64,000 nucleotides of DNA from a candidate division FCPU426 bacterium (lineage in GTDB: Bacteria > Oederibacteriota > Muellerivitia > Muellerivitales > Muellerivitaceae): assembly GCA_963830915.1 (NCBI GenBank), contig CAWHOE010000047.1, forward strand, positions 7,781 to 71,780, given 5' to 3'. Of the stretch, positions 7,624 to 57,255 are shown one piece after another. The notes beneath the pieces were generated by a model, which was given only the letters and a program-made list of their open reading frames with translations, had not been told where the DNA came from and made no database searches. The translations under genes were made by a program, and so were the position numbers. Position 1 is the first letter of the stretch, and each line of letters starts with the position of its first letter.

Positions 7624-8664
7624 TCAGATATATTCTTTTTCCAGTACCGAGATCCGCTTCAGGAAGTCCATGGACTTGTCCAGCAGGTAACCCGAACCCA
7701 TGGCCACCGCGGTGGTCGGATCGTCCGCCAGGTTGACCGGAACCCCGGTCTCGTCCCGAAGGCGCTCGTCCAGGTTCTTCAATAAGGAAGAACCGCCGGC
7801 CAGGATGATACCCCGGTCCACGATATCCGCCGCCAGCTCGGGAGGGGTGCGTTCCAGGGTCATCTTGATGGCCTCGATGATCTGAACTAACGGCTCTTCC
7901 AGGGCGCCCCGGATCTCCTCGGAAGTCAATTCGATGGTCTTCGGCAGACCGGTCACCAGGTCCCGGCCCTTGATCTGCATGCGCAGTTCCTGTTCCAGGG
8001 GGAAAGCGGAACCGATCTGGATCTTGATGTCCTCAGCCGTTCTCTCTCCGACCAGGATGTTGTAGGTCTTTTTCACGTAATTGATGACGGCTTCGTCCAG
8101 CTCGTCGCCCGCGGTACGGATGGAGCGTCCATAGACCACATCGCCCAGCGAGATGACGGCTACTTCGGTGGTTCCCCCGCCGATGTCCACGATCATGTTG
8201 CCCTGGGGTTCGGCGATGGGCATGCCGGCGCCGATGGCTGCCGCCATGGGCTCCTCGACCAGGAATACTTCCCTGGCCCCCGCCTGCTCGGCGGAGTCGC
8301 GAACCGCGCGCTTCTCGACCTCGGTACAGCCCGAGGGGATGGCCACGACGATTCGGGGACGGATGAGGGAACGGCGGTTATGGACCTTGGAGATGAAGTA
8401 GCGGAGCATGCGCTCGGTGACCTCAAAGTCGGCGATGACGCCGTCCTTCATGGGGCGGATGGCGACGATGGAACCGGGTGTGCGTCCCAGCATGAGCTTG
8501 GCGTCGTTGCCGACCGCCAGGATCTGGTTGGTGGCTTTATGAACGACGACGAGGGAAGGTTCTTGAAGGACGATGCCGCGACCCTTGACATAAACCAGCG
8601 TGGTGGCGGTACCCAGGTCGATGGCGACATCGCTGGAGAACAAACCGAGTAGGAAATTAAGCAA
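7624..8664 (-). CDS. mreB: rod shape-determining protein MreB (actin homologue)
   Basis: Actin-fold motifs: [24 protein letters not shown] and LAGGSSLL. Confidence 0.95.
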
Positions 8665-9357: not shown

Positions 9358-9877
9358 GTAAACCGTTCTCCGTAAAATTAAATGCGGCTAACTATACCAC
9401 GCCACAAATGCGTTTCAAGGGCTTTTAGGACGTTTTTAAACCCCACTTCCGCATAGGTAATAACGGCATTTCCAGGCATTTCTTGAGGTCTTAATTGTCA
9501 AAAAACCTTTGTCAAAAAACGAGGCGGTCTCGAAACATCTTTAAATCGTCTAACCCACCAGCTTTAAACCTTAAAACGTTTGCAGATTTTCTAGGACATT
9601 TCTTGAACATTCCTTTAACGTTCAATTTGTTTTTTTCAAAAATATTCATTTTTAATTTGAAAGAATCGGACGTTGGATTTATTTTCCTTTCATGTTTTCC
9701 CAGGAAAGAAAGAATCAGAAAGTTTCCGGTCAAGCTTCGGTTGAATATCTGCTGACACTATCGGTTGTTTTGGTCGGAATGCTGGGGATCGGGGCTCTAT
9801 TTTCGGATCAAGTGAATCGCTATCTTTCAATGCTGTTCAATTTGGTCCTGAAGCCCTTTTAATATTTAAAGGAGTCA

Positions 9878-10084
9878 TTGAATATGAAAAAGCTAAATCA
9901 AAAAGCGCAAAGTATGACCGAATACATCCTGATCGTTGCCTTGATCGCCGTTGCGGCCATCGCGGCGGTCAAGATCTTTGGAGGTTCCATTCAATCAGGT
10001 TTTGGCGGAGCCGCCGCCGCGGTCGGCAGTAACGCCGGGACCGCGAATGGCGCGGGAGTCGTGGGTAACGCGCTCGGTCATTAA
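9878..10084 (+). CDS. flp: Flp/Fap family type IVb pilin
   Basis: 68 aa. KAQSMTEYILIVALIAVAAIAAV matches the Flp motif (G/TEY followed by a hydrophobic stretch). It is the first gene of the Tad locus. Confidence 0.8.
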   Translation: MNMKKLNQKAQSMTEYILIVALIAVAAIAAVKIFGGSIQSGFGGAAAAVGSNAGTANGAGVVGNALGH

Positions 10085-10089: not shown

Positions 10090-10638
10090 TTGCGAACCCT
10101 AAATCATCGGGGGCAGTCAGCGGTTGAATTCATTTTGACCGCCCCTGTTTTATTCTTATTCTTTTTCGGGATCATCCAATTAGCCTATACCGCTTATGTT
10201 TCATTCGCGGTGCAAAGGGCGGCTTATTCCATCGCTCGGGAAGCTTCCTCTTCCGGATCACCGGAAAATTACGATCCCTATTTCCAACTCTTTTATTGTC
10301 TTTACCCCATCGGTCAACTTCATCACGCCACATTGGGCACTCTTCTAGCGACCACCTGTTCCATCACATCCGATGATGATGGCGTCCATGTCAGGATCGT
10401 TTATCCCATGCCCATCTGGGTTCCGATGGTCGGAAAGATCTTTGGTGAAAAACTCCAACTATCCGCCTCGGACCTAGGGCCTTTAACGAATGATCTTCAA
10501 CAAGTTTCACAGATCTTAGGGACACCGCTGCCGGACCTATCTTTCACTGGAGCGGCGTTGCCTTATGTCCATCTGATGACTTTCACCGCCGATGGTTTCG
10601 ATGAAAATACGGCGGTTAGTCAGGACTCGACCCCATGA
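10090..10638 (+). CDS. TadE/TadG-like pseudopilin
   Basis: RGQSAVEFILTAPVLFLFFFGIIQLAY matches the TadE-like N-terminal motif. Confidence 0.75.
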   Translation: MRTLNHRGQSAVEFILTAPVLFLFFFGIIQLAYTAYVSFAVQRAAYSIAREASSSGSPENYDPYFQLFYCLYPIGQLHHATLGTLLATTCSITSDDDGVHVRIVYPMPIWVPMVGKIFGEKLQLSASDLGPLTNDLQQVSQILGTPLPDLSFTGAALPYVHLMTFTADGFDENTAVSQDSTP

Positions 10639-11810
10639 ATCGGATCAGATATTGGACCCAAAAACCCTCCGGTCAAGTTTTGTTGGCGACACTGCTTTTT
10701 TGCTTCATATTTCTCGCCCTATTCGTCGGTTTATATAAATCGGGACTGCTCTATACCGCCAAGGAAAAAGCCTCCAGAGCCACCGACCTGACGGCTTTAT
10801 CGGCCGGGGCGGTCTACGCCAACGGCATGCAATTGGTCCGATTGACGAACGCCATTCTCATGGGTTTCGCGGTGGTGGATATTGTGGTCATGGAAGCGGA
10901 ACTGGATATAACTGGCGGGATATCCCTCGGCATGATCGAAAGCGCCGACCCCCATACCCGAAAATTCATACAAGAAGCCCAGAAAATACTATTTGGGGTT
11001 ACCTATCCCAGCGGTGCCTATCCTTTCCTTATATTCAACGAGACTTTATCCCTGGCTTCCGATAATCAACTCAAGGATTCATGGCCCGGGATCGGTAGTT
11101 TTTCCTTTAATGTGCCTTCCCTCCCTTCCCCCATCCTTCTTTTCAACCTGGAAGGGTCCAGCCCGGAAACCTCGATCCTTCCCAATATGGCCTTGAAATT
11201 CCGCACCCTCAACTTGCTCCTTCCCGCCATGAGCAAGAAAAACAAAGGGCAAAATAGTTACCGTTTAACAAAAAAAGATACTGGAGAGGAAATTATCTTC
11301 CAGCAGCATGAAGTTGAGCCCGTCCCGAACGCTGTCAACCCCGGACAAATGCGGGTCAAGAAAGGTCTGGATGAGCAATTCAAATTTGTATCGGTCATCA
11401 AGGAAGGCGAAGCGGAGGCCGAAAAGGAAGCCAGTCAAAGGATAAAAAAAGAAGCCACCTCAAAAATGAAATCCCTATTCGGGATCACCAATATGCTCAA
11501 CCGTATCGAAATGGATGTCATGGACAGGGACGATCCTCCCGACCATACGGTCATTGTTTACTCGAACTTCCCCACCGATATCAAAAACCCGAACGGGTCG
11601 AACGCGGAAGTGCAATCCTTGAGCGAAGTTTCGGTCGAGGGGCCGGGTCTGGCCGGTTGGGACCTGTTCAAACCGCCTTATCAGCCCCGATTGCTACCCA
11701 AGGACCCGACCCAGATCGCAAAGCTCTTGGATATCCAGGGCCGGATCCAGGAATGGGTCACCCATGGGTCTTTGCCGAAGATCAACGATATTTTCAAGGT
11801 TGGCTCATGA
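10635..11810 (+). CDS. Tad pilus assembly protein, TadG-like (pilus-associated)
   Basis: N-terminal hydrophobic helix and a 391-aa secreted body. Its position and ATGA-overlap coupling to the next gene fit the TadG / Flp-pilus-assembly family. Confidence 0.5.
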   Translation: MNRIRYWTQKPSGQVLLATLLFCFIFLALFVGLYKSGLLYTAKEKASRATDLTALSAGAVYANGMQLVRLTNAILMGFAVVDIVVMEAELDITGGISLGMIESADPHTRKFIQEAQKILFGVTYPSGAYPFLIFNETLSLASDNQLKDSWPGIGSFSFNVPSLPSPILLFNLEGSSPETSILPNMALKFRTLNLLLPAMSKKNKGQNSYRLTKKDTGEEIIFQQHEVEPVPNAVNPGQMRVKKGLDEQFKFVSVIKEGEAEAEKEASQRIKKEATSKMKSLFGITNMLNRIEMDVMDRDDPPDHTVIVYSNFPTDIKNPNGSNAEVQSLSEVSVEGPGLAGWDLFKPPYQPRLLPKDPTQIAKLLDIQGRIQEWVTHGSLPKINDIFKVGS

Positions 11811-12319
11811 GAATAAACAAGCCTTTTTCCTTAAACACCCGTGGACAATCTATGATCGAAATGCTGATCGTTATCCCCATCCTTTGCATGATGGCCGCCG
11901 GGGTCGCGCAATTCGCCATCCTATTCCAGGCCCAAAGCTCTTTTGAGCACGCTTGCGGATTGGCCGCCCGCTATTACGCCGCCGGGGAGCTTGACCCTAA
12001 CGGATTCGCCGAGGAGGTTTGGGATGACTTGGGATCGGATCAGAAATATTTCACTCCCGGTTCCATCCTGGCCGTCCCCATCCCCACCCAATCGATCGCC
12101 AGTTCGGGATGGCTGGACCGCTTAAATCTTTTGGGGCCGTTGGTTTCCAAGATCAAGCAATTCACGGTCAATTACACCGGGCAAAAGTGGTTCGTCACGA
12201 TCCATTACCATTCAGCGCCTTTTTTCGGCCTGCTTTTCCCTGGCGGTCTGGTTTTGAAAACCCAGTTGGCGGTACTGAAATATCCCGACCAACCGGTCAA
12301 CGGGGTGGGCGGGCCATGA
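11807..12319 (+). CDS. TadE-like pseudopilin
   Basis: The likely true start is MRINK at 11807, where ATGA overlaps the upstream stop. RGQSMIEMLIVIPILCMMAAGVAQFAILF is a TadE motif. Confidence 0.7.
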   Translation: MRINKPFSLNTRGQSMIEMLIVIPILCMMAAGVAQFAILFQAQSSFEHACGLAARYYAAGELDPNGFAEEVWDDLGSDQKYFTPGSILAVPIPTQSIASSGWLDRLNLLGPLVSKIKQFTVNYTGQKWFVTIHYHSAPFFGLLFPGGLVLKTQLAVLKYPDQPVNGVGGP

Positions 12320-13047
12320 AACAAAAGTGGTTCTGGGGGACCTTTCTATTCTTAACGATATTCACCAGTACGGTCATCGCCTGGGCCCTGATCTTTTCTC
12401 CAGTTAGGTTCTCGCCGAAAACGCTCCAGGAATTCCAGACCAAAATTAACGGTACGGAAGAAAAGAACCAGATCTGGGTCAATGAGGGTCATTTAAAAGA
12501 ACTTCTCCCGGTCATCGTGGAAAAATGGGACAAGGAGGGATGGAAAATCCATGGCCAAAAAATGGACCTAACCCCCGCCGTCCTGGGATTGTTGGATGAT
12601 TCCATCGATCTGGAGGACAACCTTCAGGTCCGCGTTTTCAAGAAGGGGGATCTTTATCGAACTTTGGGGTTATGGGAGCCTCCCGGAAACGACGAAACCT
12701 ATGGTTGGGTCGGAGAACTGCCCGATCGGGCTTTTAACCCCAGTCTAGCGGTTGAGAAATGGGACTTCCCCATGGCGCCGCCACCCAACGCCTTAAGGAT
12801 CTATTGCCAGGGTTTGGAGAACTTAAAGGTCGCTTTGATCTCCCTCCCCCCGCCCCGGAATTTCGACGATCAATTCCTGGCCTATTGTTCCTCCCAAGGC
12901 TTCACCGGAAAACTTTGGAAGAAAAACGAGGACGAAAGCGTCTATTTCCTCAACCAAGGCGGGAAAAAGATCCTGGCGTTCTTGAATATGGATGAAGGGG
13001 AAGGTCACATCTCCCTGGTCTCGTTCGACCCAAAAAATAAATATTGA
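12316..13047 (+). CDS. hypothetical membrane-anchored protein in Tad locus
   Basis: Start MKQKWFWGTFLFL at 12316 (ATGA overlap). One N-terminal TM helix; no recognised domain. Confidence 0.45.
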   Translation: MKQKWFWGTFLFLTIFTSTVIAWALIFSPVRFSPKTLQEFQTKINGTEEKNQIWVNEGHLKELLPVIVEKWDKEGWKIHGQKMDLTPAVLGLLDDSIDLEDNLQVRVFKKGDLYRTLGLWEPPGNDETYGWVGELPDRAFNPSLAVEKWDFPMAPPPNALRIYCQGLENLKVALISLPPPRNFDDQFLAYCSSQGFTGKLWKKNEDESVYFLNQGGKKILAFLNMDEGEGHISLVSFDPKNKY

Positions 13048-13057
13048 AAGGACGGTC

Positions 13058-13828
13058 ATGAAGAACACCAACTCGGTCATCGCTTTGACGGTAGGGATCC
13101 TTTGCGGGGTCCTGGCTTTCTTTCTTCTCTATCAAAAAGCGGCGGATATCGAGAAAAAATCCACTCCCGTTGAGATACTTTTCGCCACGCGGTTCATCTC
13201 CGCGGGAAATTGGCTGAAACCTGAAATGGTCGAAAGAAGATCGATCCCTGGGGCTTTCGTTGTTCCCAGCGCTATTCATGACATCCGGGATGTACAGGAC
13301 ATGGTCAACCTCGTGCCCATCTCCGCCGGTGAACAGATCATGGCCAATAAATTCGGGTCCGGGGACGATTCCCTGGCGCTGGCTTTGAACAATGGTTATC
13401 GGGCCTATACCCTGGAAGTCAACGAGACCAGCGGGGTGGGCGATTTGCTACATCCTGGCAACCGGGTGGACCTCCTGACCAAGGTCACGACCGGGAAAAG
13501 GGAGATCACCGCCTTCGCCCTCCAGAACATCCAGGTCCTGGCGGTCGGCCAGAAGTTGAACGGACCGTCCAAAGCCGTCAAAAACCCTAATAACAGTTCT
13601 GGATCAGGTAGTTCCAGTTCCTATAGCACGGTCACATTGGCGGTCACACCAGAACAAGCGGAAACCCTGATGTATCTGGAAGGTCAACCGTTGCGACTGG
13701 TATTAAGGGCGCCCAGCGATGACGAGATCGTTTCCTTATCGCCCCAAAGCGAAAACGAAGTTATGTCAAAGCTGGGTCATTTTGCGCCGAAGGCTAATCA
13801 TAAGATCGAGATCATTCATGGGGAATAA
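13058..13828 (+). CDS. cpaB: Flp pilus assembly protein CpaB/RcpC
   Basis: N-terminal TM anchor then a SAF-like domain (ILFATRFISAGNWLKPEMV). Lies directly upstream of the secretin gene. Confidence 0.75.
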   Translation: MKNTNSVIALTVGILCGVLAFFLLYQKAADIEKKSTPVEILFATRFISAGNWLKPEMVERRSIPGAFVVPSAIHDIRDVQDMVNLVPISAGEQIMANKFGSGDDSLALALNNGYRAYTLEVNETSGVGDLLHPGNRVDLLTKVTTGKREITAFALQNIQVLAVGQKLNGPSKAVKNPNNSSGSGSSSSYSTVTLAVTPEQAETLMYLEGQPLRLVLRAPSDDEIVSLSPQSENEVMSKLGHFAPKANHKIEIIHGE

Positions 13829-13844
13829 TAGAAAGGAACATTTC

Positions 13845-14864
13845 ATGAAGAAATTCACGCTGTTTTTTGTACTGATGACCTTAGTTATGATTCGTCCGGC
13901 AATGGCTGATGAGTCCGCGATCCATTTGACCCTCGGGGAATCAAAACTTGTCCCTGTGGAATCGGCTAAAAAGGTCGCTATTGGCAATCCAGCGATCGCC
14001 AATGTGACCCCAGTGAGCGATGATGAAATCCTCCTCTCGGCAAAAACAGTCGGTAACACCAATTTGATCTTCATTGGCGCGGACGGGAACAAGGAATCCC
14101 GCGCCATCATCGTAACGGCCCACAACTTGAAAAAAGCCATGGTCGAGGTCGGGGTCGAGATCATGGAGATCGAATCCCAAAGCGCTCTCAAAGCTGGCTT
14201 GAGTTGGGGTTCCCTGACTTCCAGCTCCTCGAGTTCCTCCAGCGGGTCTTCCCTATCCTCAACGACCCCCAATAACTTGACGATCAGTGAAAATTCCCCT
14301 CCCCCCCTAGTGGCTTTCGGTTCGTTCACTCGGCAATCCCTGACGGCGAGCCTCCAGCTATTGGTCAACCGCGGCAAGGCCAAAATACTCGCCAAACCCA
14401 AATTGTTGGCGGTCAGTGGCGAGGAGGCCAGTTTCCTGGCCGGGGGAGAACTTCCTTATACGGTGGAAACCAAACTAGGCTCGGTGGACATCCAATGGAA
14501 ACCCTATGGAGTAAAGCTCAAGGTCAAGCCCACGATCGATGGGGAGGGCAACATCAACTCTATCCTGAGGGCCGAGGTCAGCGGGGTCGACACCCAGAAC
14601 GGCATATCTCTCAACGGAAATATCATCCCGGCCTTACGGACACGCTGGGTCGAGACTACGGTCTATATGAAAAGTGGAAGTACTTTGGTCATCGCCGGAT
14701 TGATCGATAACGAAAACCAGAAATTGACCTCCGGGATCCCGATCTTGAGCGACATCCCGATCCTGGGCGAACTGTTCCGGTTCACGGACAACGAGGAAAC
14801 ACAGACCGAACTGGTCATTTTCGTCACGCCCAGTTTGGTCGGGCAGACGACGGACGAGGGCTGA
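13845..14864 (+). CDS. cpaC: Flp pilus secretin CpaC/RcpA
   Basis: Signal peptide, T2SS/T3SS pilus N-domain (IHLTLGESKLV...VAIGNPAIANV), a Ser-rich linker and a C-terminal secretin domain (VSGEEASFLAGGELPY...IPILGELFR). Confidence 0.85.
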   Translation: MKKFTLFFVLMTLVMIRPAMADESAIHLTLGESKLVPVESAKKVAIGNPAIANVTPVSDDEILLSAKTVGNTNLIFIGADGNKESRAIIVTAHNLKKAMVEVGVEIMEIESQSALKAGLSWGSLTSSSSSSSSGSSLSSTTPNNLTISENSPPPLVAFGSFTRQSLTASLQLLVNRGKAKILAKPKLLAVSGEEASFLAGGELPYTVETKLGSVDIQWKPYGVKLKVKPTIDGEGNINSILRAEVSGVDTQNGISLNGNIIPALRTRWVETTVYMKSGSTLVIAGLIDNENQKLTSGIPILSDIPILGELFRFTDNEETQTELVIFVTPSLVGQTTDEG

Positions 14865-14865
14865 C

Positions 14866-15354
14866 CTATTCGTCCGCGGAGGGAGCTTGATCCAGGCCGA
14901 TCACTGGATCGCCCGGTTTAAGACCGTTTTTTTCGAACCATCCGGCGTTCATTTCCAGGGCGTATTTCGCCCCTCCCTTGGAGAAAAAACTATCCTCGGT
15001 CAAGGGTGGCATTTCTAGTACGTTAAGGATAATTCCCTTATCGTCCATAAAGGCAATGCTTAAGGGGATATAGGTATTTTTCATCCAAAAAGCCCTTAGT
15101 GCTGTTTCGTGGAACACGAAAAGCATACCGTTGTTCTCGCCCATGGATTTGCGGAACATCAGCCCCGCATCCCTCGTGGGGATCTTGTTGGCCACCTCAG
15201 CGAGAACCTCATGATGGTTCAGGGTCAGATGAACGATGGGTAGATCGGACCTGATCGCGGGGCGACAAGAAAAACCAGCCAGGCCCATCCACAGGACCAG
15301 TCCGGCCAATTTCGGCAATTGTTTAACGTCCCAGATTCGCGACTGTCCGAGCAT
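14866..15354 (-). CDS. DUF192 domain protein
   Basis: MLFVFHETALRAFWMKNTYIPLSIAF...GAKYALEMNAGWF fits the conserved DUF192 (COG1430) core. Convergent with cpaC. Confidence 0.65.
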   Translation of the reverse strand: MLGQSRIWDVKQLPKLAGLVLWMGLAGFSCRPAIRSDLPIVHLTLNHHEVLAEVANKIPTRDAGLMFRKSMGENNGMLFVFHETALRAFWMKNTYIPLSIAFMDDKGIILNVLEMPPLTEDSFFSKGGAKYALEMNAGWFEKNGLKPGDPVIGLDQAPSADE

Positions 15355-15429
15355 CTTTTGAAAGTCCCCCTCGTTGGTTAAAAGCTATTTAAATTGACGA
15401 TTTTAAAGCTATTGGCTTAAGATACTTCC

Positions 15430-16425
15430 GTGATGAAACGAACTCTCTTTCTCGCGCTTTTAATAACGATATCACAAACCATGGTTACGGCAAAAGTTTT
15501 TGCCGACCCATCCGAAGCCCAATTGACCGAGGCTTATAAATACGCTTACGCACTATATGGAGCCCAGCGTTTCGATCAGGCCAAGGAAGTATTCCAAAAG
15601 ATAGCCGCGGTCACGACCCAACCTGGGTTGAGCGCCAATTCCCTCTACTACTATTCCCAATGCGCGTTCCGCACCGAGGATTACGACGGTTGCGTTAAAG
15701 GGCTGGATGTGCTGACCCAGAAATGGCCAAAGTCGGCCGCGATCACCAAGGGTTTCGTTTCGAGATTCGCCATCTTTTTGATCAATCAGGTCTCCAAGCT
15801 GCAAACCAATTGGGATTATTACCGATACAAGGAAGGGCTGGACGAAAACCATCAGATCATCTGGAAAGAAAGCATTCCCCCAGGGTTCAAGATCAAACGC
15901 ATCAATTTCAAGTTGGGTTTCGGCCTCTATCGCATCCTTAAGCGCATTCAACCGGACGCCCCTGAAACAGCGGCTTGCAAACAAAGGCTGAACTTGATGA
16001 TCAACGCTCCTATCACCATGGTGTGGGTGGATGAGAAAGCCCCACCGGACAAGTGGGGGCATCCAGGTAATTTCTTTTCCCTCTTCTCGATCACCGAAAA
16101 GAAGCAATTTTCCAGGTTCATTTGCGATCGGATGTTCTACAACTGGAAGAGCGAGAAATTGTACCAATTCCTCGATATGTACGACGATGTGCGTAATCTG
16201 AAGCCCCGTTTCATCGCCAGGACCAAGCCGCCGGAAGATACAGGGGTAGCGCCAGGGAGCATGGCAAGCGCGCCTCCCCTTCCCGGTTCCTCTACCCCAG
16301 CAGCGGCCCCCGCGGATCCATTCGCCGTGTTAACTTTGTACAAACTTTTCCAAGTGACAGGTTACAATCCCTACACGGATAGTTTCACCAGCCTGATCGA
16401 ATCAACCCCCGCCAGCGCCCTGTAA
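15430..16425 (+). CDS. secreted TPR-like protein (possible TadD analogue)
   Basis: Signal peptide. The N-terminal ~150 aa carry TPR-like helices (AYKYAYALYGAQRFDQAKEVFQKIAAV). The C-terminus is Pro-rich. Confidence 0.4.
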   Translation: MMKRTLFLALLITISQTMVTAKVFADPSEAQLTEAYKYAYALYGAQRFDQAKEVFQKIAAVTTQPGLSANSLYYYSQCAFRTEDYDGCVKGLDVLTQKWPKSAAITKGFVSRFAIFLINQVSKLQTNWDYYRYKEGLDENHQIIWKESIPPGFKIKRINFKLGFGLYRILKRIQPDAPETAACKQRLNLMINAPITMVWVDEKAPPDKWGHPGNFFSLFSITEKKQFSRFICDRMFYNWKSEKLYQFLDMYDDVRNLKPRFIARTKPPEDTGVAPGSMASAPPLPGSSTPAAAPADPFAVLTLYKLFQVTGYNPYTDSFTSLIESTPASAL

Positions 16426-16429
16426 AATC

Positions 16430-16798
16430 ATGAAACCATCCAATTGGGTTTGGGCCGTATTCTTCTTGATGGCGATCACGCCCTTTTCATTTGGTCAAAC
16501 CGAATCCACGAAAACTAAAGCCACGGAAAAAATGGTCGCGACACCAAAACCGCTAACGACCGGCAAGAATAACAATTATTCCAACGCCCTGATCATCCAC
16601 AAGCCAGCGCCAGATCCCGCCTGGGGAAAGATCGTTCAATATAAGCGTGAACAGATAACTTCCATTTCCAGCAAGGAAAAGGAAACGATCTATGAATTCG
16701 TTTTTCAGGATGACCAAGGCGTTATTCGGACCGCTATATACCACGAGAATGATTCAGGGGATGGATATTGGGAAGTACTGGTATGGGACCAAACGTAG
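16430..16798 (+). CDS. hypothetical secreted protein
   Basis: Signal peptide, 122 aa, no motif. Confidence 0.4.
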   Translation: MKPSNWVWAVFFLMAITPFSFGQTESTKTKATEKMVATPKPLTTGKNNNYSNALIIHKPAPDPAWGKIVQYKREQITSISSKEKETIYEFVFQDDQGVIRTAIYHENDSGDGYWEVLVWDQT

Positions 16799-18827
16799 GA
16801 ATATCATCTAACTTATTTAGCATTTTAGGGGTCAAAGGCGGGGTCGGAAATTCTTCCCTCACTTCTTTGGCCTGTCGGCTTGCGAGCAAAAAACACTCCA
16901 AAAAAATAGCGATCGTTGACGGAGCGCCTTCCCATCATTCCACGACCCCTTTATTCCTATCCACGCCATCCACGAACCGCCATTTATTACAACTCCAACC
17001 CTATGGGGATCAAATCAATGAGAAAATGATCGAGAGTTTCTTTTCGGTCAGCCCTGAAGGGGTTACCTATATTCCCGTCCGCGCGACGGACGAAGAAGCA
17101 TCACTCAGCCCGGAAAATGTTCTCATTTTGCTTGGAAAGATCGCCCGTTCCTTCGATATTTTATGGTTGGACCTCTCCTCCTTCCCCAGTGATCAAAGGA
17201 TCACTTTCCTTGAATGCAGCCAAAATTTCATTCTCGTTTCTTCGACAAATCCGGCATCTTTGAGCGCGCTGAATCAATGGGAAAAGCGCCTCCTTTCCCT
17301 TCAACTGGATCTCTCAAAAGCGGGATTGATCCTGAACCAAGCCCATCCAAACCAAAGCCAGCCCAAAGATATAACCCCTTGGGCTAAAAACATTTCCATT
17401 CTCGAAACTATCCCTTATCTAGGGGATGATTTCTCCATAAAGCTATTTGAGTCTAAAGTTATCCAACCCCCAATCGAGAAAGCGATAGGGCCTTTGGTGG
17501 ATAAAATGCTCGTTTTTTCGTCCACAAAAAAGACCGTCCAAACACCCCTTCAAAAATATCCAACAAAGGAAAACACGGTTGAAAATACCGACGGGGATGA
17601 AGATCATCTGCGGAACATTCACCTTCTCCATCAAAAACTCCTTGAAAATCTCAGATCAAACGGATACCTGACCGAACAAACCAATGATAAAATCCAAACC
17701 GAGCTGAAACCTAAGGCCCGAGAAATACTGGACCGCCTGATACAAGAAATGGACATTCCCGACCGAATGATCCGGCAAAAATGGGTAGCTGAAACTCTTG
17801 ATATCGCTTTTGGCTTGGGCCCCTTGCAACCCCTGCTCGACAATGAGGAAGTTTCCGAGATCATGGTCAACGGTCCCGAGCAGGTCTATATCGAAAAAAA
17901 AGGGCTTCTTGAAAAAACCAACGTAAGATTTTACGACGATATCCAGTTGCGGACCGTGATCGAGCGGATCCTCGCTCCGATCGGTAGAAGGATCGATGAA
18001 AGCCAACCTTATGTGGATGGAAGATTGCATGATGGATCCCGTTTGAACGCGGTCATCCCCCCCCTAAGCCTGAACGGGCCCATTCTGACCATCCGAAAGT
18101 TCTCAAAACACAAATTAAAAGCCGAAACCTGATCAAACTTGGATCTTTAAGCCGGGAAGCCGCCGATTTCCTGGGCGCTTGCGTCAAGGCCAGAAAAAAC
18201 ATCGTGGTATCCGGAGGGACCGGTTCAGGCAAAACAACGCTCCTCAATATCTTGTCCAGTTTCATCCCTGACAACGAAAGGATCGTGACCATCGAGGATT
18301 CAGCTGAATTACAGCTTTCCCAGGATCACGTGGTCCGCTTGGAAGCCAGACCCGCGAACCTTGAGGGTAAAGGTCAAATCTCCATTCGGGATTTGGTCAT
18401 CAACGCCTTGAGGATGAGACCGGATCGGATCGTGGTGGGAGAGGTTCGGGGAGGCGAGGCTTTGGATATGCTGCAGGCCATGAATACAGGACACGACGGT
18501 TCACTGACCACGGCCCATGCCAATTCGCCGCGGGATGTTCTATCCAGGCTTGAAACCATGTGTTTATTCACGGGGCTGGACCTTCCGATGAAAGCGATCC
18601 GGGAACAGATCGCCCGAGCGATCCACCTGATCGTTCAACAAAGCCGTTTACCCGGCGGAAAAAGATCCGTTACCCATATCAGTTCGGTCCAGGGCATGGA
18701 GGGTGATGTGGTGATCCTGCAGGAACTATTCAAATATGAGGAGGGAAAGGGCTTGGTGCGACAACCCTTCCCGCCCTCTTTTATCGGGGATTTGAACCCG
18801 GTCGGATATCAATGGCCAAAGCAATAA
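16768..18827 (+). CDS. cpaF: TadZ/CpaE-like degenerate ParA domain fused to CpaF/TadA secretion ATPase; apparent frameshift (track ORFs 16768..18132 and 18204..18827)
   Basis: The first ~230 aa are ParA/MinD-like with a degenerate Walker A ([10 protein letters not shown], Lys replaced by Asn). The CpaF N-domain ([15 protein letters not shown]...LTIRKF) follows in the same frame. A stop at 18130-18132 interrupts it, and the -1 frame continues [38 protein letters not shown] into Walker A and the ATPase domain ([11 protein letters not shown]). Confidence 0.75.
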
Positions 18828-18846
18828 ACCCGTATTAAAAACCGGT

Positions 18847-19317
18847 TTATTTTTTATTCTGTTTCTTTTGCTGTTTGGCGACAGCTTCTTTTTCCACGGT
18901 CGTTAGGGGCGCCGGTATATAGGAGTCATCCCCCACCGGTGTGATGGTCGCGATCTCCGCGGCGTACTTCTGATAATCCGGCCTAGTCTGACGGAGATCC
19001 GCGTCCAGGGGACCCTCCACCGGGACAAAATCGCCCAGATAGGCCCGACAGATCCACTCCTTTTCAGCGGCCTTATCCACCCATTGGGTGTGGGGAAGGT
19101 AATAGAATTCCTGGACTTCCTGATAATCCCACATGGCTTCCTTATATTTCTTTTGGGCGAAATGGTCCTCACCTCTCAAGAATGCGGCATGGGCCCTGTG
19201 AATGACCTCCAGGTTCGCCATCCCATAGGCGATCAATAACGTTCCAATAATCGCTACCGCCGTAAAGAAACCCTGTTTTTTGAAAAAGGGCGTTTTTTCT
19301 TGATTCATATCAGCCAC
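18847..19317 (-). CDS. hypothetical membrane protein
   Basis: One TM helix and a Lys-rich C-terminal tail. Confidence 0.4.
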   Translation of the reverse strand: MADMNQEKTPFFKKQGFFTAVAIIGTLLIAYGMANLEVIHRAHAAFLRGEDHFAQKKYKEAMWDYQEVQEFYYLPHTQWVDKAAEKEWICRAYLGDFVPVEGPLDADLRQTRPDYQKYAAEIATITPVGDDSYIPAPLTTVEKEAVAKQQKKQNKK

Positions 19318-19326
19318 AAGGGCCTC

Positions 19327-20340
19327 CTAGAACTGTTTTAAAAACCTTATGTCGTTCTGGTAAAACAACCGGATATCATCAATATCATACTTAAAGAGCG
19401 CGATCCTCTCCACTCCCATTCCAAAGGCGAAACCCGTCCATTTTTCCGGATCGATACCACAATTCTTGAAAACCTCAGGATCGATCATTCCGCAGCCCAT
19501 CAATTCCACCCATCCGGATTGTTTGCAGATGCGGCATCCCTTTCCCTCGCAAAAAACACAGGAAATATCCATCTCGGCCGAAGGTTCGGTAAAGGGGAAA
19601 AAGCTGGGGCGAAAACGCGTCTTGACCTTGTCCCCGAATAATCTCTTGATGAACGTATCCAAAACGCCTTTTAAGTGGCCGAAATGCACTCCCTCGTCCA
19701 CTAAAAAGCCTTCTACCTGATGGAAAATATGATGATGGGTGGCGTCAATCGCCTCGTTCCTGTAAACCCGGCCAGGAGCGATGAATTTAAAGGGCGGTTT
19801 GTTCTTTTCCATGACCCGGATCTGGATGGGGGACGTATGGGTCCTCATTAAAATGTCCTCTTGGAGATAAAAAGTGTCCTGGGCATCCCTGGCTGGGTGG
19901 TCAGGTGGAAAATTCAGGGCAAGAAAATTATAGTAATCGGTCTCGACATCCGGACCATCGCTCAGGTCAAAACCCATTTCCTTGAAAATGGCCGCGATTT
20001 CCTTTTGGACCCTGGTCAAAGGATTCAGCCGTCCGGCAGTCCATCGCCTGCCAGGTAAGGTCGGATCGAAATCAGCCCGGGGTAATGAATCGCTTTGACT
20101 TTCGATGTCCTCTTTTTTTTGCTCCAATAACCGAGTGATAGTATTTTTGACATCATTACAAGCCTTACCGACCAGTGGCTTTTCTTCAGGGGAAAGTCGC
20201 CCCAATTCCTTCAAAACATCGGTTAACAAACCGCTTTTGCCAAGGAATTTAACCCGCAGATCCTCAATGGTTTTCAAATCCGAGGCACCTTGGATGGATA
20301 GTTCGGCCTGGCCAGATATTTCCTTGAGTCGATCAAGCAT
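19327..20340 (-). CDS. pheS: phenylalanine--tRNA ligase alpha subunit
   Basis: Class II aaRS motifs (FRPSFFPFTEPSAEMDI, GCGMIDP, AFGMGVERIA). Confidence 0.95.
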   Translation of the reverse strand: MLDRLKEISGQAELSIQGASDLKTIEDLRVKFLGKSGLLTDVLKELGRLSPEEKPLVGKACNDVKNTITRLLEQKKEDIESQSDSLPRADFDPTLPGRRWTAGRLNPLTRVQKEIAAIFKEMGFDLSDGPDVETDYYNFLALNFPPDHPARDAQDTFYLQEDILMRTHTSPIQIRVMEKNKPPFKFIAPGRVYRNEAIDATHHHIFHQVEGFLVDEGVHFGHLKGVLDTFIKRLFGDKVKTRFRPSFFPFTEPSAEMDISCVFCEGKGCRICKQSGWVELMGCGMIDPEVFKNCGIDPEKWTGFAFGMGVERIALFKYDIDDIRLFYQNDIRFLKQF

Positions 20341-20629: not shown

Positions 20630-21486
20630 TCACCGGCTTTCTGGGGTGTCAAGAAACGGGCCCCCTTTTCGGGTATAAAACAGGGCAATACTCGCCGCCA
20701 CAGCCACATTCAAGGACTCAACTTGACCCATCATGGGTATTTTGAGGGATTGGTCACAAGCTTTTATCAATTCCTCGGGTAATCCCCCACCTTCCGAACC
20801 CACCCAGAGGACCAATGGCATCTTCGGTTCATATCCGAACAAGGTTTTTTCCGAATTCCCGGTCAAAGCCAGGGATGTAAACCCGTTCCCCTTGTACCAA
20901 GCCAAATATTCTTCCCAAGGTTTATTTGAATCGAACGGAACTCGAAAGAGTGATCCCATAGAAGCTCGGACAACCTTTGGGTTGAAAGGATCGCAACAAC
21001 CCTCGGTCAAAAAAAGTCCCTGGGCTCCAAATGCCTCGGCCGAGCGGAAAAGGGTACCCAAATTCCCAGCATCCTGGATCTGGTAAGCGGCCAAGAAAAG
21101 TCCAAAAGGAGGCTGGAGGTCTGCTTTGGGGGGTTTCGCTACCACCGCCAATATCCCTTGGGGTGTGACTGTATCGGCAAGATAGGTGACGGTCTTATTG
21201 GGTATCTCGAAACATCGAACTTTAAGCCGATCGGCCTGAAGCAGGATTCCTGCCCCTCAGGACTGGTGTAACCCTTGGCCGTGGCGAACAGATAACGAAT
21301 TTTCAGGTCCGAACGCAGAGCTTCTTTGACAAGATGGAAACCCTCGCAAAGAAAATCCTCGGATTCTTTTAACTTTTTGGGGACCTTCAAGGAATAAGCG
21401 TGTTTAACCATGGAATTGCCGATGCTTTGAATGACAGGAATATTCGTCATGAAAAATCCCTTCCGCATTCGGCTGCAAAAAAACAC
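20630..21486 (-). CDS. TrmH/SpoU-family RNA 2'-O-methyltransferase; apparent frameshift (track ORFs 21139..21486 and 20630..21151)
   Basis: The N-terminal substrate-binding part (KHAYSLKVPKK...RYLFATAKG) and the SpoU methylase part (DAGNLGTLFRSAEAFGA...VGSEGGGLP...VESLNVAVAASIALF) lie in different frames. The second frame, read upstream, gives RCFEIPNKTVTYLADTVTPQGILAVV, which is typical of the family. The position between rplT and pheS matches B. subtilis ysgA. Confidence 0.7.
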
Positions 21487-22875: not shown

Positions 22876-24703
22876 TTAAAGAGGCAAATCAACATCGGGG
22901 AAATTATCCATGATCCTATCCCTGACCATGGACAAGAGCGCTGTCTGCGCCTTGGCCATAGGAACCTGCGCCTGTTTTTCCGCCGCATATCGGCGCCAAG
23001 TCACCGTCACATCCTTGACCTCATTGGAGCCAACGATCCAGATATTCGGGACCTTCTTGGTGATGGCGTTGCGGACTTTTTTGGAGAAAGAATCATTGGT
23101 GGAGTCCACCTCGACCCGGATCATTTGGGCATGGAGGTCGCCTGCCATCTGATTGGCGTATGGAAGGAAATCCTCCGCCACAGGAACGATCTTCACTTGC
23201 GTCGGCGAAAGCCAAGTGGGGAAAGCCCCACCCCAGCGCTCGATCAGGAAGGATATGAAACGTTCGTGCGTACCCAAGGGAGCCCGGTGGATGATGAAGG
23301 GTCTTTGTTTGGAGCCATCCTGCGCCGTATATTCCAGTTGGAACCTTTCGGGCATGGTGAAATCAAGCTGCACGGTCGCCGCGGTCTCTTCCCTGCCCCA
23401 GCACATTCTCGGTTTGGTAGTCGATCTTGGGGCCATAAAAAGCCGCCTCCCCCATGACCTCCTCGTATTCCACTTCCAATTCCTTCAGGACTTCCCTCAG
23501 GATGTTCTCGGTTTTGACCCACAATTCCTCGTTCTCCGTGAACTTTTCCTTATCCTGGTCATGGAGGGATAAACGCACCCATATTTTATCCATGCGGAAT
23601 TTCTCGAAATACAACTTGTGCATCGCCACGACTTTCTTGATCTCGTCCTTGATCTGGTCTTGGGTGCAATAGATATGGGCGTCGTTCATGGACAATCCCC
23701 GAACCCTCAGCAAGCCGGCCAACTGTCCGGATTTCTCGAAACGATAGACCGTGCCATATTCGGCCAGGCGCAAAGGTAGTTCCCGGTAACTCCTGGGACG
23801 GCTCAAGTAGATCATGTGATGGTGGGGACAGTTCATGGGTTTCAGGTAGAACTCCTCCGGGGGCGAATCCGGATCCTTTTCCACGGTGCGCATGGGCGGG
23901 AACATGGAGTCCTTGTACAACTGGAGATGTCCGGAAAGCTTGTACAATTCCCCGTTGGCGATATGGGGTGTGGCCACGCGGACGTAGCCGTCCTTGAACT
24001 CAAGTTCCTTGGCGAATTTCTCCAGCTCTTCCCTGATCACCGTACCGTTCGGTAGCCAAAGAGGGAGACCCTTCCCCACGTGCTCATCGATAGTGAAAAG
24101 CTCGAGTTCCTGTCCCAGTTTTCGATGGTCCCGTTTGAGCGCCAATTCCCGGCTCTTGATGAACTCCTTGAGTTCGCTTTCCGATGGGAAACAAAGCCCA
24201 TAGATGCGGGTCAACATGGGCCGTTTGACGTCCCCCCGCCAATAACTGCCGGCGATGGAATCCAATTTGAAGGCCATGACCGGGATCTGGGATGTGTTCT
24301 CCACATGGGGTCCCTCGCACATGTCCACAAAGGTCCCGCTCTTGTAGAAACTCAGTGATTCGTTCTCCTGGATCAGCTCCTGGGCGTACTCCACCTTGAG
24401 CTTTTGACCCATCGTTTCCAACTTTTTCATCGCTTCGGCCTTGGGAAGTTCTTCCCGTTGGAAGGTTTCCTTCTCTTGAAGGATCTTTCGCATCCTTTTT
24501 TCCAGGTCCGGCAGATCGGATTCGGTCAATGGTTCTTCCAGCATGAAATCGTAATAGAAGCCTGTGCGGATGGGGGGGCCAAAACCCAACTGAGCCTTGG
24601 GGCGCACCTGAAGGACAGCTTGGGCCAGGACATGGGCCATGGAATGGCGCATCTTGAAGAGCGCCTCGTCCATCCTATGTTTCGGTTCGTATTTATCGGA
24701 CAT
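22876..24703 (-). CDS. thrS: threonine--tRNA ligase; apparent frameshift (track ORFs 23363..24790 and 22876..23436); no N-terminal TGS domain
   Basis: Editing-domain HxxxH (RHSMAHVLAQAV) near the N-terminus, the class II core (FYGPKIDY) and a C-terminal anticodon-binding part (TVQLDFTMPERF...IIHRAPLGTHERFI) in the second frame. Confidence 0.85.
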
Positions 24704-24750
24704 GGGGATTCCAATGAAGAAAGATGATGGCAGGCATTCGAGCGAGAAAA

Positions 24751-24827
24751 TGGTGGGCGTAACTGGACTCGAACCAGTGACCCCTTCCATGTCAAGGAAG
24801 TACTCTAACCAACTGAGCTATACGCCC
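24751..24827 (-). tRNA. tRNA-Val (anticodon GAC)
   Basis: Cloverleaf read by eye: acceptor GGGCGTA/TACGCCC, anticodon stem-loop CTTCC-TTGACAT-GGAAG, T-arm GGTTCGAGTCC and an encoded CCA. Confidence 0.8.
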
Positions 24828-32665: not shown

Positions 32666-32793
32666 ACAACTCCTCTCATCGGCTTTCATTCCCTTCCCTT
32701 ACATTGGGCCCTCAAACCCACTTTCACGTTATTAGTGGTAATATTTTGTTTAACATTTATTCCTTATATATTCGGGGAGGAATTAGCAAACCC

Positions 32794-35700
32794 ATGAAAC
32801 GACACATCATCATCGCCATCGTCTTGATCCTTGGACTTCCTTTTTTACTTGGCTTTAAATCCCTCTCAAAAAACAAGCCGGTTCCCCATCGCGGGCTTTC
32901 TCCATCCGTTCAAGCGCGTCTTTTGGAGACCTATGGCCATCTTCCATTGGCCTTCGAACCCAATCAGGGACAGATCGATCCTCAGGTCCAGTTCCTCGCC
33001 CACGGAAAAGGCTATAGCCTCTTTGTCACATCTCAAGAGGCTGTGCTGGTCCTGAAAAAGCCAAAAACCATCGCTCCCCCCAGGTCCCCGATAAAAGGTG
33101 TCCGGACCAAAAGCAGCGTTTTCCTCGCGCCCGACCATACCCCGCCGCTCGCGATCCACCTGAAACTGGAGGATGTCCTGCCGAACGCCGTTTTTGAAAG
33201 CATGGATAAACTTCCCGGTATCAGCAGTTATTTCATCGGCAAGGATCGATCCAAATGGCATCGGAACATCCCGCAGTTCTCCAAGGTCGCGGCCCATGGT
33301 GTCTTTCCGGGTGTGGACATGGTCTATTACGGGAACCAGGGAAAACTGGAATATGATTTTGTGGTCCAACCTGGTTCGGACCCAGGCGGAATCCATTTGA
33401 GGATCGAGGGAGCCAAGAAAATCCAGGTCACCAGCCAAGGAGACCTGGAACTCTTAACCGATCAAGGCGCCTTGAACTTCCTTGCCCCTAGTATTTACCA
33501 AGAGAACCAAGGGCAAAAAAATGTCGTGGAAGGCCGTTACAAGCTGACCGAGGACGGGAAAATAGGTTTTGAGATAAAAAATTATGACCATTCCAAACCT
33601 CTGGTCATCGATCCGGTTTTGGACTATTCCACTTATTTAGGAGGAACAGGGGCCGATCAAGGCAACGGGATCGCCTTGGACGGGGCCGGTGACGCTTACA
33701 TCGTCGGGAGAACCACCTCCTCCGACTTCCCCTCGGAAAATGCCTTCGGCGGGACCCAGAACGCTTTTGTCACCGAGATCGATCCTACCGGGTCGAACTT
33801 CATCTATTCGGTCTATCTGGGTGGCACGGGTTACGATTACGGTCAGGCCATCGCGGTCGACTCGGCCAGGGAACGCCTTTATCGCCGGCTACACCAGTTC
33901 CGCCGATTTTCCCACCCAATCCCCTTTGCAGGGTTCGCTTAACGGCACCCTGAACGCTTTCGTGACCGAGATCATGGCAGGCGCTTCATCCCTGGGCTTC
34001 TCGACCTACTTGGGTGGATCGGGTCAAGATGGGGCTTTCGGACTGGCCCTGGATGGTTCGGAGAACATTTATATCACCGGAGCCGCCACATCCACGGACT
34101 TCCCCACTTATATCCCGATCCAATCCTCACTGAATGGTTCCCAGAACGCCTTTGTGGCCAAACTCAACGCCGGAGGAGGGTCTTTAGCTTATTCCACTTA
34201 TTTAGGGGGGAGCGGGAGCGATAATGGAAATGGCATCGGTGTGGATTCCAACGGGAACGCCTATGTGGTTGGTTTTACCTCTTCCACCGATTTCCCCACC
34301 CAATTCCCTCTCCAAGCCTCTTTGGCCGGCACCAACAACGCTTTTGTCACTGGGATCAACTCGGCCGGCACCGCTTGGATCTATTCGACCTACCTGGGAG
34401 GGAACGGCACCGATTCGGGCACCGCTATCGCGGTGGACCCCAGCGGGGACGCCTTTGTGACCGGCTACACCAACTCCACCAATTTCCCGACCCAGAACGC
34501 TTTCCAATCCACCTTGACCAATAACCTGGACGATATTTTCGTGACCGAGATCAACCCGACCGGGTCCGCGATGGTCTATTCCACCTATCTGGGGGGATCA
34601 TCGTCCACCTATGGCGACCAGGCCTACGGCATCGCGGTGGACCCCAGCGGGGACGCCTATGTGACCGGCTACACCAGTTCCAGTGATTTCCCCACCCAAA
34701 ATCCCGTCCAACCGAACATGGTCTCAGGCGCTCCCGTCAACGCCTTCGTCTCGGAATTCGGGCCCGGGGGGACGGCTTTGCTTTTTTCCACTTTTTTAGG
34801 CGGCTCGGGCGGCGAGCAAGGTTATGCCATCGCGGTCGACGGGACCAACGATTGCTATGTGACAGGCTATACCTATTCCACCGACTTCCCCACCACGACC
34901 AATCCCCTCCAGCCCGCCAACGCCGGGGTCCCTGACGCTTTTATTTTCGAGATCTCCCAGCCCTCCCCCACGCCTACCCCAACCCCCACTGACACGGCTA
35001 CGAACACGCTGACCGGCACCCCCACCAACACCCCGACCATTACCAATACTCCCACGAATTCAGCGACAACCACCTCCTCTTTCACGCCAACCTACACCGC
35101 CACCGGCACGATGACCGGCACACCGACCAATAGTTCGACCCTGACCGTTACACCGACCATCACCAACACTCCCACCAACTCAGGCACAGCGACCCTCACT
35201 TCCACACCCACCAACACCGGCACAAACTCCTCGACTTATACCCCTTCAGGGACCCCGACATTGACCGACTCCCCGACCATCACCAATACTCCCACCAACT
35301 CAGCCACATTGACTTCATCCTCCACAGCCACCAACACCGCGACGAACACCATGACCGGCACTCCCACTTCAACCGCGACCACCACCTTTACCTTCACCGA
35401 CTCCTTCACGCCCACCCAGACTCCGACATCGACTTATTCTTCCACCCCCACCAGCACTTTCACCAACACTGCAACCCCCACCAAGACCTGGACATCAACC
35501 TACACCTTCACAGGAACCCCAACTTCGACCTTTACGAACACTTTCACTTACACTTTCACCCCAACCATCACCTACACCCCAACCTCCACACCCACTGAAA
35601 CCTTATCCCCCACCATGACTCCCCCGCTTTATTCCATCCCGGTGATCTACCCCAATCCGGCCGACGGGACCGTTCCGGTCCGGTTAAGACCCCCGGCCTT

Positions 35701-35908
35701 CTTCGGCGTATCGGACGTCAAGGTGCAGATCTTCACCCTGGCCTATCGAAAGGTGCAGGAAACCTTCTATCCCAGGATCACTTCCGGTACCGATTGTTTG
35801 CTCCCGCTCGTGGACAAATGGGGAAAACCCCTGGCGGACGGTCTTTACTACGTGGTCGTCCATACTTCCCAGGGACGGACCATCGGCAAACTGCTGGTTC
35901 TTCGCTGA
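32794..35908 (+). CDS. secreted beta-propeller-repeat (SBBP-like) protein with PT-rich linker and T9SS C-terminal sorting domain; apparent frameshift near 33870 (track ORFs 32704..33942 and 33689..35908)
   Basis: Signal peptide MKRHIIIAIVLILGLPFLLG. Repeated YSTYLGGSG.D.G.GIAVD..GNAYVTGYT.S.DFPT units. A Thr/Pro tract of about 230 aa. The final 85 aa are YPNPADGTV...GLYYVVVHTSQGRTIGKLLVLR. Confidence 0.75.
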
Positions 35909-56692: not shown

Positions 56693-56918
56693 GTGTGACC
56701 GTCCGCTCAGTGACGCCTGATTTTTTAAGATGATCCGAAATGGCAAGGCCCAAGTTCATTAAAAGCTCTTTCCGCAATTCCAAAGGTAGTTCCTGTGATT
56801 TGGACATTGGAACCAAAAGGCTGGCAACCTTCCCGTGTTTGGTCACAAACACGAGATCATCGCCGCTCAGAAACTCCGGCGCGTGATCCCTAAATTCCCT
56901 TACCCCCGCGACTCGCAT
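56640..56918 (-). CDS. Phd/YefM-family antitoxin
   Basis: VREFRDHAPEFL..DDLVFVTKHGKVASLLVPM. Confidence 0.7.
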   Translation of the reverse strand: MRVAGVREFRDHAPEFLSGDDLVFVTKHGKVASLLVPMSKSQELPLELRKELLMNLGLAISDHLKKSGVTERTVTHDFETWRKSRRSDRRGR

Positions 56919-57025
56919 AAAACCACCTTCCCGCGACCGTTGATACTTTCTACCCCTTCAATATAGGATTTCATAAAATTATGTCAACAATTATGTACAC
57001 AATATACATTTTCCTTTGTCCACGA

Positions 57026-57106
57026 CGGCGGTGCCCTAAAGTAGACCCTATAGCAGAACCTATCGGCACGCTATAGGGTCTGCTACTGGGATCCCATCGT
57101 GGACAA
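57026..57106. repeat. nested-palindrome element (outer TTGTCCACGA/TCGTGGACAA, inner GTAGACCCTATAGC/GCTATAGGGTCTGC)
   Basis: Read directly. The outer arms are the same GTCCACGA arms as the hairpin in repeat copies A and B. Confidence 0.65.
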
Positions 57107-57138
57107 ACCATTACGATAATTTATGGTTTTCGCCAGAT

Positions 57139-57178
57139 CCCCCGATTACTCAGTCATTGAGTATTTTTACTCAGTCAC
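57139..57178. promoter_or_regulatory. two adjacent operator-like palindromes TACTCAGTCA(T/C)TGAGTA
   Basis: ATTACTCAGTCATTGAGTAT and the perfect TACTCAGTCACTGAGTA, upstream of the gene fragment at 57256. Confidence 0.45.
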
Positions 57179-57255
57179 TGAGTAATCCGTAATAACCTTT
57201 TTCCGCTCCAAAAAGCCCATTTCCGAAGGTTCATTCAAATATCTCATCGATCAAG

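Follow-up and report, generated by a model that had tools for sequence, protein, structure and literature searches.

The DNA analysed here, called the window throughout, is a 64,000-nucleotide stretch of contig CAWHOE010000047.1 (assembly GCA_963830915.1) from a candidate division FCPU426 bacterium. It carries a locus for a Flp/Tad (type IVc) pilus, and the gene at the end of this locus, tadZA, appears to encode a TadZ-like domain fused to the TadA/CpaF motor ATPase. As written, the gene begins with an open reading frame (ORF) of 454 amino acids on the forward strand (16768..18132), which can start at TTG 16768 or at the in-frame ATG 16783 and ends at a premature TGA (18130-18132). The reading frame shifted back by one base opens at ~18042, carries the peptide of the ATPase core past the premature stop, as a first-pass annotation had noticed, and runs to its own stop at 18825-18827. 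Addition of one base at 18125-18128 resulted in a continuous protein of 681 (ATG start) or 686 (TTG start) residues, in line with the ~690 residues that the annotation had expected from a single-base correction. We consider it about 75% probable that the region represents one gene, tadZA, the last of the tad locus of an FCPU426-related bacterium, and that its internal stop is an error.

Domain scans of the rebuilt protein, which the first-pass annotation had proposed as a check, had a divided outcome: the motor part was recognized clearly, whereas the ParA-like N-terminal part remained below threshold in Pfam. The T2SSE domain (PF00437) matched residues 350-625 with an E value of 1.1e-63 and 215.6 bits versus a cutoff of 24.9. 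The NCBIfam model TIGR03819 (TadA-family conjugal-transfer-associated ATPase) gave 2.5e-101 and 339.3 bits, under its cutoff of 373.15; this model covers a narrower subfamily, and the miss leaves the general TadA/CpaF assignment unaffected. All four ATPase motifs are present, namely the Walker A sequence GGTGSGKTT at residue 478, the Asp box at 499, Walker B at 544, and the His box at 570, and their columns are invariant across the fusion family described below. The C-terminal ~410 residues share 46% identity with Caulobacter CpaF (8rjf_A; E value 4e-44, template modelling (TM) score 0.76 relative to the target). For the whole protein, a model was available of P0001, an intact fusion of 681 residues on a metagenome contig that a protein search had found to be 99% identical to the ORF. 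This model (67 sequences) had a mean predicted local distance difference test (pLDDT) value of 88.8 and consisted of two confident modules, residues 8-247 and 270-673, joined by a linker (248-269) with a pLDDT of 43-48. The linker is followed by three helices (270-343), an N-terminal domain, and the ATPase core. The same arrangement of N-terminal helices, N-terminal domain, and four-motif core is found in CpaF/TadA of Caulobacter crescentus (8rjf, 8rkd; PMC11300603), which, however, has no fused ParA-like domain and lacks the ~270 residues that precede the helices here.

These additional residues contain the putative TadZ-like domain (hereafter the N-domain). In Pfam, CbiA, AAA_31, and ParA matched residues 18-217 of the rebuilt protein, all below threshold; the curated cutoffs were missed by CbiA with 24.9 bits for the full-length protein and 18.8 bits for the N-terminal fragment (cutoff 25.4) and by AAA_31 with 19.5 bits (cutoff 27). 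The N-terminal 281 residues retrieved BcsQ (6.7e-6) and a CpaE homologue (CpaE_hom_Actino, 0.03, below cutoff) from NCBIfam. An AlphaFold model of the N-domain, based on a 23-sequence alignment, reached a pLDDT of 91.2 and displayed the alpha/beta fold of MinD and ParA, with the first beta-strand starting at residue ~11. Neither in this model nor in the full-length model did a receiver domain precede this strand. In a Foldseek comparison with the PDB, the best match was 3ea0 (TM score 0.80), followed by FleN, FlhG, MinD, and HypB, with 3fkq at rank 18; the probability was 1.00 each for 3ea0, FleN, FlhG, and MinD. A sequence-profile search of the PDB was likewise headed by 3ea0 (2e-13), ahead of FleN (7e-9), MinD (3e-8), and 3fkq (6.6e-5). 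The Walker A motif of the N-domain, KGGVGNS, conforms to the pattern K/RGGxGx[S/T] without the P-loop lysine, and the alignment with 3ea0 shows KGGDGGS, in which this lysine is lost as well. The signature lysine, the aspartates of switch I and switch II, and the base-binding asparagine are retained.

To place the N-domain among its relatives, a profile was run over 1.84 billion representative sequences, and of the top 150 hits, the 148 proteins that were new were evaluated. Ten hits at E values of 1e-30 or lower make up the N-domain's own subfamily. A CpaE-like layout, with fewer than 520 residues in total and the P-loop behind an N-terminal domain of 100 residues or more, was found in 90 of the 148 proteins. 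About two-thirds of the 148 have no P-loop lysine, with KGGxG[T/C/V/A][ST] in the majority. When five of the 90 were compared with NCBIfam, four matched both MinD-like and CpaE-homologue models, and three of these four also matched a response-regulator model. The N-domain thus corresponds best to the ATPase half of TadZ, minus the receiver half. We call it TadZ-like rather than canonical TadZ because it failed the curated thresholds of the hidden Markov models (HMMs) and the defining receiver domain is absent. The ORF, the scans, the models, and the intact orthologues all agree with the first-pass description of a TadZ-like domain whose P-loop is degenerate and which is joined in frame to a CpaF/TadA ATPase. 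With respect to the ParA domain itself, the fold, the lysine-free P-loop, and the relatives uphold that description, but it has to be narrowed to the ATPase half, as the receiver-like domain is missing.

The fusion is not confined to the window. A genome collection was scanned with a six-sequence alignment of the N-domain; the closest loci showed 42-49% identity, and several of them reside in metagenome-assembled genomes (MAGs) titled candidate division FCPU426. Five FCPU426-related genomes (loci L003-L007) encode intact single-ORF orthologues of 684-695 residues in the same gene order. The reading frame, interrupted in the window gene, is intact in these orthologues and in P0001, which starts at the ATG equivalent to 16783; some relatives begin five codons earlier, at the position that corresponds to the TTG. 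The protein search with the 454-residue query listed ~59 proteins of ~625-693 residues (85-100% query coverage, 37-55% identity) and a further ~25 proteins of ~700 residues with 29-34% identity and clearer matches to ParA/CbiA/AAA_31 plus T2SSE. Overall, the fusion occurs in at least ~75 distinct protein clusters. We aligned 78 full-length fusions, 53 close and 25 distant members. At the P-loop position, lysine occurs in none of the 53 close members (Cys in 36, Thr in 10, Asn in 4, others in 3), and 19 of the 25 distant fusions have a canonical GK[ST] P-loop. Both groups have conserved the signature lysine K18 as well as D46, D130, and N185, and the linker varies from 25 to 43 residues across the family. 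To judge from these sequences, the fusion is a conserved gene form in FCPU426 relatives and occurs in many metagenomic proteins. Looking for similar fusions in related taxa, as the first-pass annotation had recommended, yielded five intact orthologues and, among database proteins, ~75 further full-length fusions. The fusion as such is confirmed, but its designation as unusual was too strong: it is standard in this lineage, occurs in at least ~75 clusters, and is known from Bdellovibrio.

We then inspected the frame break. P0001 is encoded on L001, a 9,087-bp JGI contig that aligned to positions 10689..19775 of the window with 99.2% identity, 72 mismatches, and exactly one gap over the 9,087 bp. 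At this gap, L001 reads GCCGAAGACCTG and the window GCCGAA-ACCTG; a G is absent (GAAGAC to GAAAC). As the missing base is a G, the AAA run results from the deletion and not from a miscounted homopolymer, which contradicts the proposal that an A had been lost from a run. Restoration of the G gives AEDLIK, and the aspartate is at least 90% conserved in the fusion family. Shortening of AAAA to AAA (AENLIK) is less probable; the alignment makes G the most likely base. The first start codon behind the break is GTG 18204, located within the Walker A strand, and a pattern scan for promoters and terminators across 16300-19000 gave counts no higher than in shuffled sequences and nothing upstream of the post-break segment. 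The independent promoter that would have spoken for a separate ATPase gene thus did not emerge above chance. Judged from its reading frames, the gene as written could not yield a working ATPase.

The break in tadZA has company. A tblastn comparison of the proteins of four related loci with the window revealed that the frame changes twice more in the 5.4 kb that follow. The gene for threonyl-tRNA synthetase (ThrRS, thrS), a single ORF of 608-646 residues in the four relatives, is split in the window at ENVLGQG / REETAATVQLD, where the relatives have ENVLGREETAATVQLDF; the nucleotide context is CTGGGGCAGGGAAGAG in the window and CTCGGGCGGGAAGAA in one relative. The gene for a SpoU/TrmH methyltransferase, a single ORF of 267-278 residues in the four relatives, is broken as well. 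All three breaks lie within or beside short G or A runs. The ThrRS split is probably a one-base assembly error. A cell with a broken thrS would hardly be viable, and all three breaks are thus explained most economically by single-base errors of sequencing or assembly. Together with the sole indel relative to L001, the nearby thrS and SpoU/TrmH breaks are in keeping with the suggestion of the first-pass annotation that the interruption is an error. In the related MAG locus L003 (16251..18076, minus strand), thrS also seems to be divided into two adjacent ORFs of 204 and 405 residues, with a junction elsewhere than in the window, which suggests that assemblies of this group often contain indel errors. 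Further downstream in the window, two plus-strand ORFs in different frames, 32704..33942 and 33689..35908, overlap by ~250 nucleotides and both contain SBBP beta-propeller repeats, the first also DUF7948; they may represent one large gene with a further frame break.

The genes around tadZA are listed in Table 1. Two Flp-like ORFs stand at the head of the tad locus, which ends with tadZA, and the starts of cpaB/rcpC and cpaC/rcpA were set from relatives. The gene order is retained in L002-L008: mreB, a zinc-ribbon protein, the tad genes ending with tadZA, a convergent small gene, pheS, rplT, infC, and thrS. In all relatives examined, the DUF192 gene is likewise located within the tad locus, on the opposite strand. 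A Pfam scan of 30 larger ORFs of the window detected neither a T2SSF protein (tadB/tadC) nor a prepilin peptidase, and a second ParA-like gene did not turn up either. The genes for the platform must have their place elsewhere, as some of them do in Bdellovibrio. In the 20-kb loci L003-L007, the ORFs flanking tadZA all match the same non-tad genes as in the window.

Table 1. Features of the tad locus, of tadZA, and of the neighbouring frame-broken genes in the window
Feature	Position	Strand	Evidence and remarks
Flp-type prepilin-like ORF	9692..9862	+	GQASVEYLL; motif by eye
Flp-type prepilin-like ORF	9878..10084	+	AQSMTEYILIVALIAV / AQSMTEYILIVALIAVAAIAAV; motif by eye
TadE-like	10090..10638	+	Pfam TadE 3.4e-11
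Tad/TadG-like	10635..11810	+	Pfam Tad 3.7e-4
TadE-like	~11807..12319	+	Pfam TadE 7.2e-8
Gene without assignment	~12322..13047		Between TadE-like gene and cpaB/rcpC
cpaB/rcpC	~13058..13828	+	Pfam RcpC 2.2e-22
Secretin cpaC/rcpA	~13845..14864	+	Pfam Secretin 6.9e-44 and T2SS-T3SS_pil_N
DUF192 (COG1430) gene	14866..15354	-	Between secretin and TPR gene
TPR protein, possibly TadD-like	15430..16425	+	Signal peptide
Small protein, 122 residues	16430..16798	+	Overlaps tadZA start
tadZA, probably one gene	16768..18827	+
tadZA, 5' part	16768..18132	+	454-residue ORF, TTG 16768 or ATG 16783, premature TGA 18130-18132
TadZ-like ParA/MinD-fold domain	16804..17517	+	Residues 8-245 from ATG 16783; no receiver domain before it
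Atypical Walker A	16828..16857	+	KGGVGNS; signature Lys kept, P-loop Lys replaced by Asn
Flexible linker	17524..17589	+	Residues 248-269, between TadZ-like domain and TadA part
TadA/CpaF N-terminal helices and N-terminal domain, up to frame break	17590..18126	+	Helices at residues 270-343; 8rjf match
One-base deletion site	18125..18128	+	GAA-ACC in the window, GAAGACC in the 99.2%-identical contig L001
tadZA, 3' part, TadA ATPase core	18127..18827	+	Frame one base back; Walker motif 18213..18239, then Asp box, Walker B, His box; stop 18825-18827
SpoU/TrmH methyltransferase, frame-broken	20630..21486	-	Break ~21250-21290; ORFs 21139..21486 and 20630..21151; context GAGGGGCAGGAATCCTG
ThrRS (thrS), frame-broken	22879..24790	-	Break ~23400-23450; ORFs 23363..24790 and 22876..23436

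Directly upstream of the tad locus lies an mreB-mreC-PBP2-rodA cluster. Its mreB gene (7624..8664, minus strand) encodes a protein that is 94-96% identical to those of FCPU426-type relatives, the neighbouring genes showing 40-70%. At ~56900..60700, the window contains ~4 kb without any ORF of at least 140 residues, with tandem-repeat arrays at 58162-59210 (periods of 12-119 nucleotides) and no Rfam match. Adjoining this low-coding stretch is a minus-strand ORF of 414 residues (62038..63282) with an HNH_4 endonuclease domain (Pfam 3.8e-11). Rfam recognized only three tRNAs in the window.

A sequencing or assembly error is most likely the cause of the break in tadZA. Were the frameshift real, tadZA would be a recent pseudogene of this strain and the Tad pilus would be inactivated, with at most a 454-residue fragment left that comprises TadZ and the N-terminal domain of TadA but no ATPase core. 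Tad loci are often lost or degraded, and the stop is present in the sequence as given. In addition, the window gene differs from the near-identical, intact P0001 by six nonsynonymous and three synonymous codons, a count with little power (n=9). We nevertheless regard a pseudogene as unlikely. Two more conserved genes within 5.4 kb, including thrS, carry single-base breaks in the window and not in the relatives; the loss of an intact thrS would hardly be tolerated, and this indicates an error in the sequence. Moreover, the tad locus is otherwise intact and, at 99.2% identity to L001, free of any further indel. A programmed -1 ribosomal frameshift, or slipped-strand phase variation, could in principle set whether full-length TadZA or a TadZ-only product is made. 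The -1 frame indeed continues right after the 0-frame stop, and its opening at ~18042 leaves ~90 nucleotides in which a shift would permit the fusion. However, the 99%-identical copy and the five orthologues are all in frame, so that nothing of the kind is conserved; inspection of 18100-18132 revealed no slippery heptamer of the type X XXY YYZ, an A run of three nucleotides is too short for slipped-strand switching, and the restored residue is the conserved aspartate. We therefore rejected this explanation as extremely improbable.

The other alternative to a TadZ-TadA fusion concerns the origin of the N-domain, which might be a generic domain of the MinD/ParA/FleN type that was recruited independently, perhaps for a regulatory role like that of FleN or BcsQ. 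The HMM matches would suit such an origin, being generic in kind (CbiA, AAA_31, BcsQ, CpaE homologue) as well as sub-threshold, and so would the lack of a receiver domain and the PDB profile search, in which FleN and MinD outscored TadZ of E. rectale (3fkq). We consider independent recruitment improbable nonetheless. All 53 subfamily members have the atypical Walker A of the TadZ type, and the best PDB match, 3ea0, bears the same KGGxGxS variant. The nearest database relatives mostly show the CpaE/TadZ layout with a long domain in front of the P-loop; the position directly upstream of tadA is the usual place of tadZ, and the TadZ region of Bdellovibrio has no receiver domain either. Several observations still weigh against our assignment of tadZA as a TadZ-TadA fusion working in a Tad pilus machine. 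The N-domain fell below the thresholds of both Pfam and NCBIfam, and its profile scores are higher for FleN and MinD than for 3fkq, the one bona fide TadZ structure. With neither tadB/tadC nor a prepilin peptidase among the scanned ORFs, the Tad system cannot be taken as complete. The 6:3 ratio of nonsynonymous to synonymous differences from P0001 (n=9) is no argument for strong constraint. Finally, ATP binding, dimerization, ring formation, and localization are all inferred; what the sequences show is the conservation of K18, D46, D130, and N185.

Compared with canonical TadZ/CpaE proteins (TadZ of A. actinomycetemcomitans, CpaE of C. crescentus, and TadZ of E. rectale, 3fkq), the N-domain has the same MinD/ParA fold and the same lysine-free Walker A. 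It immediately precedes the TadA function, its nearest relatives have the CpaE-like layout, and it belongs to a tad locus with flp-like, tadE-like, cpaB, and cpaC genes. Unlike these proteins, it has no N-terminal atypical receiver domain, its C-terminus is not free to provide an amphipathic membrane helix, and its sequence match to 3fkq is weak (6.6e-5). It is also covalently linked to TadA in a 1:1 ratio, whereas six separate CpaE dimers have been modelled around the CpaF hexamer of Caulobacter (PMC13170226). The closest structure in terms of both profile (2e-13) and fold (TM score 0.80), the ParA-family ATPase 3ea0 of Chlorobium tepidum, is likewise a single domain of ~245 residues without a receiver domain and with a replaced P-loop lysine. 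It differs from the N-domain in being a stand-alone protein and shares only ~20% identity with it. It has reportedly been linked to a Tad system as a TadZ homologue (Xu et al., 2012).

The nearest parallel is TadZA of Bdellovibrio bacteriovorus HD100, described in July 2026 as a single polypeptide in which a flexible linker connects a TadZ region lacking the receiver domain to TadA, with a Walker A-like K/RGGXGXS/T motif (bioRxiv 10.64898/2026.07.08.737194). Compared by published architecture, the window protein has the same receiver-less TadZ/linker/TadA organization, and KGGVGNS fits the Bdellovibrio motif. In both cases the gene belongs to a tad locus, behind the secretin gene, and platform genes lie partly or wholly elsewhere. 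The Bdellovibrio tad genes are dispersed; tadB comes after tadZA, and tadC alone lies apart (bioRxiv 10.64898/2026.07.08.737194). In the FCPU426-labelled lineage, by contrast, the locus lacks tadB as well as tadC, and the gene is frame-broken in the window. The TadZ region and linker of Bdellovibrio TadZA bind the polar hub protein RomR, and the fusion is presented as a peculiarity of this predator (bioRxiv 10.64898/2026.07.08.737194). In full-text searches of the literature, no description of a TadZ-TadA fusion was found beyond this preprint.

From these data, a working model can be proposed, for which the properties of TadZ were taken from the literature (PMC6668835; PMC13170226; bioRxiv 10.64898/2026.07.08.737194). 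The intact protein would consist of a receiver-less TadZ-like domain, a flexible linker of ~20-40 residues, and a complete TadA/CpaF motor. By analogy with TadZ, the TadZ-like domain probably binds ATP, dimerizes, and hydrolyses ATP poorly. The TadA part would form a hexameric motor that polymerizes the Flp pilin and perhaps retracts it, as in Caulobacter (PMC11300603). The tethered TadZ domains might pair up or ring the motor and thereby serve as a peripheral ring or positioning module, a part played in Caulobacter by separate CpaE/TadZ dimers. The fusion would fix the stoichiometry at 1:1 and tie the positioning of the machine to its motor, along the lines suggested for Bdellovibrio TadZA. 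A polar-hub partner comparable to RomR may exist in this lineage.

For annotation, the split gene is best handled as a single gene with a probable one-base assembly error. In kind, the TadZ-TadA fusion is already known, very recently and from one organism, and the window gene adds a member from a different lineage. The preprint is extended by the breadth of the fusion, which is the standard gene form in genomes of the FCPU426 type, and by the second class with a canonical P-loop. Tentatively, TadZA of the FCPU426 type might even be a fusion lineage separate from that of Bdellovibrio, marked by the conserved P-loop cysteine (36 of 53), the 1:1 tether, and a tad locus without tadB/tadC. Among the cytoplasmic parts of Tad pilus machines, TadZ/CpaE is the one that is least understood. 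The fusions in their two P-loop variants are natural 1:1 TadZ:TadA constructs for structures of TadZ docking on the motor, and they allow the effect of the loss of the P-loop lysine to be compared. If the FCPU426-type fusion is indeed separate, it would mean, together with the ~700-residue class with the GKS/T P-loop, that ParA-like positioning ATPases have been fused to the Tad motor repeatedly, and that the cytoplasmic ring of the Tad machine can form from motor-tethered domains instead of free CpaE dimers.

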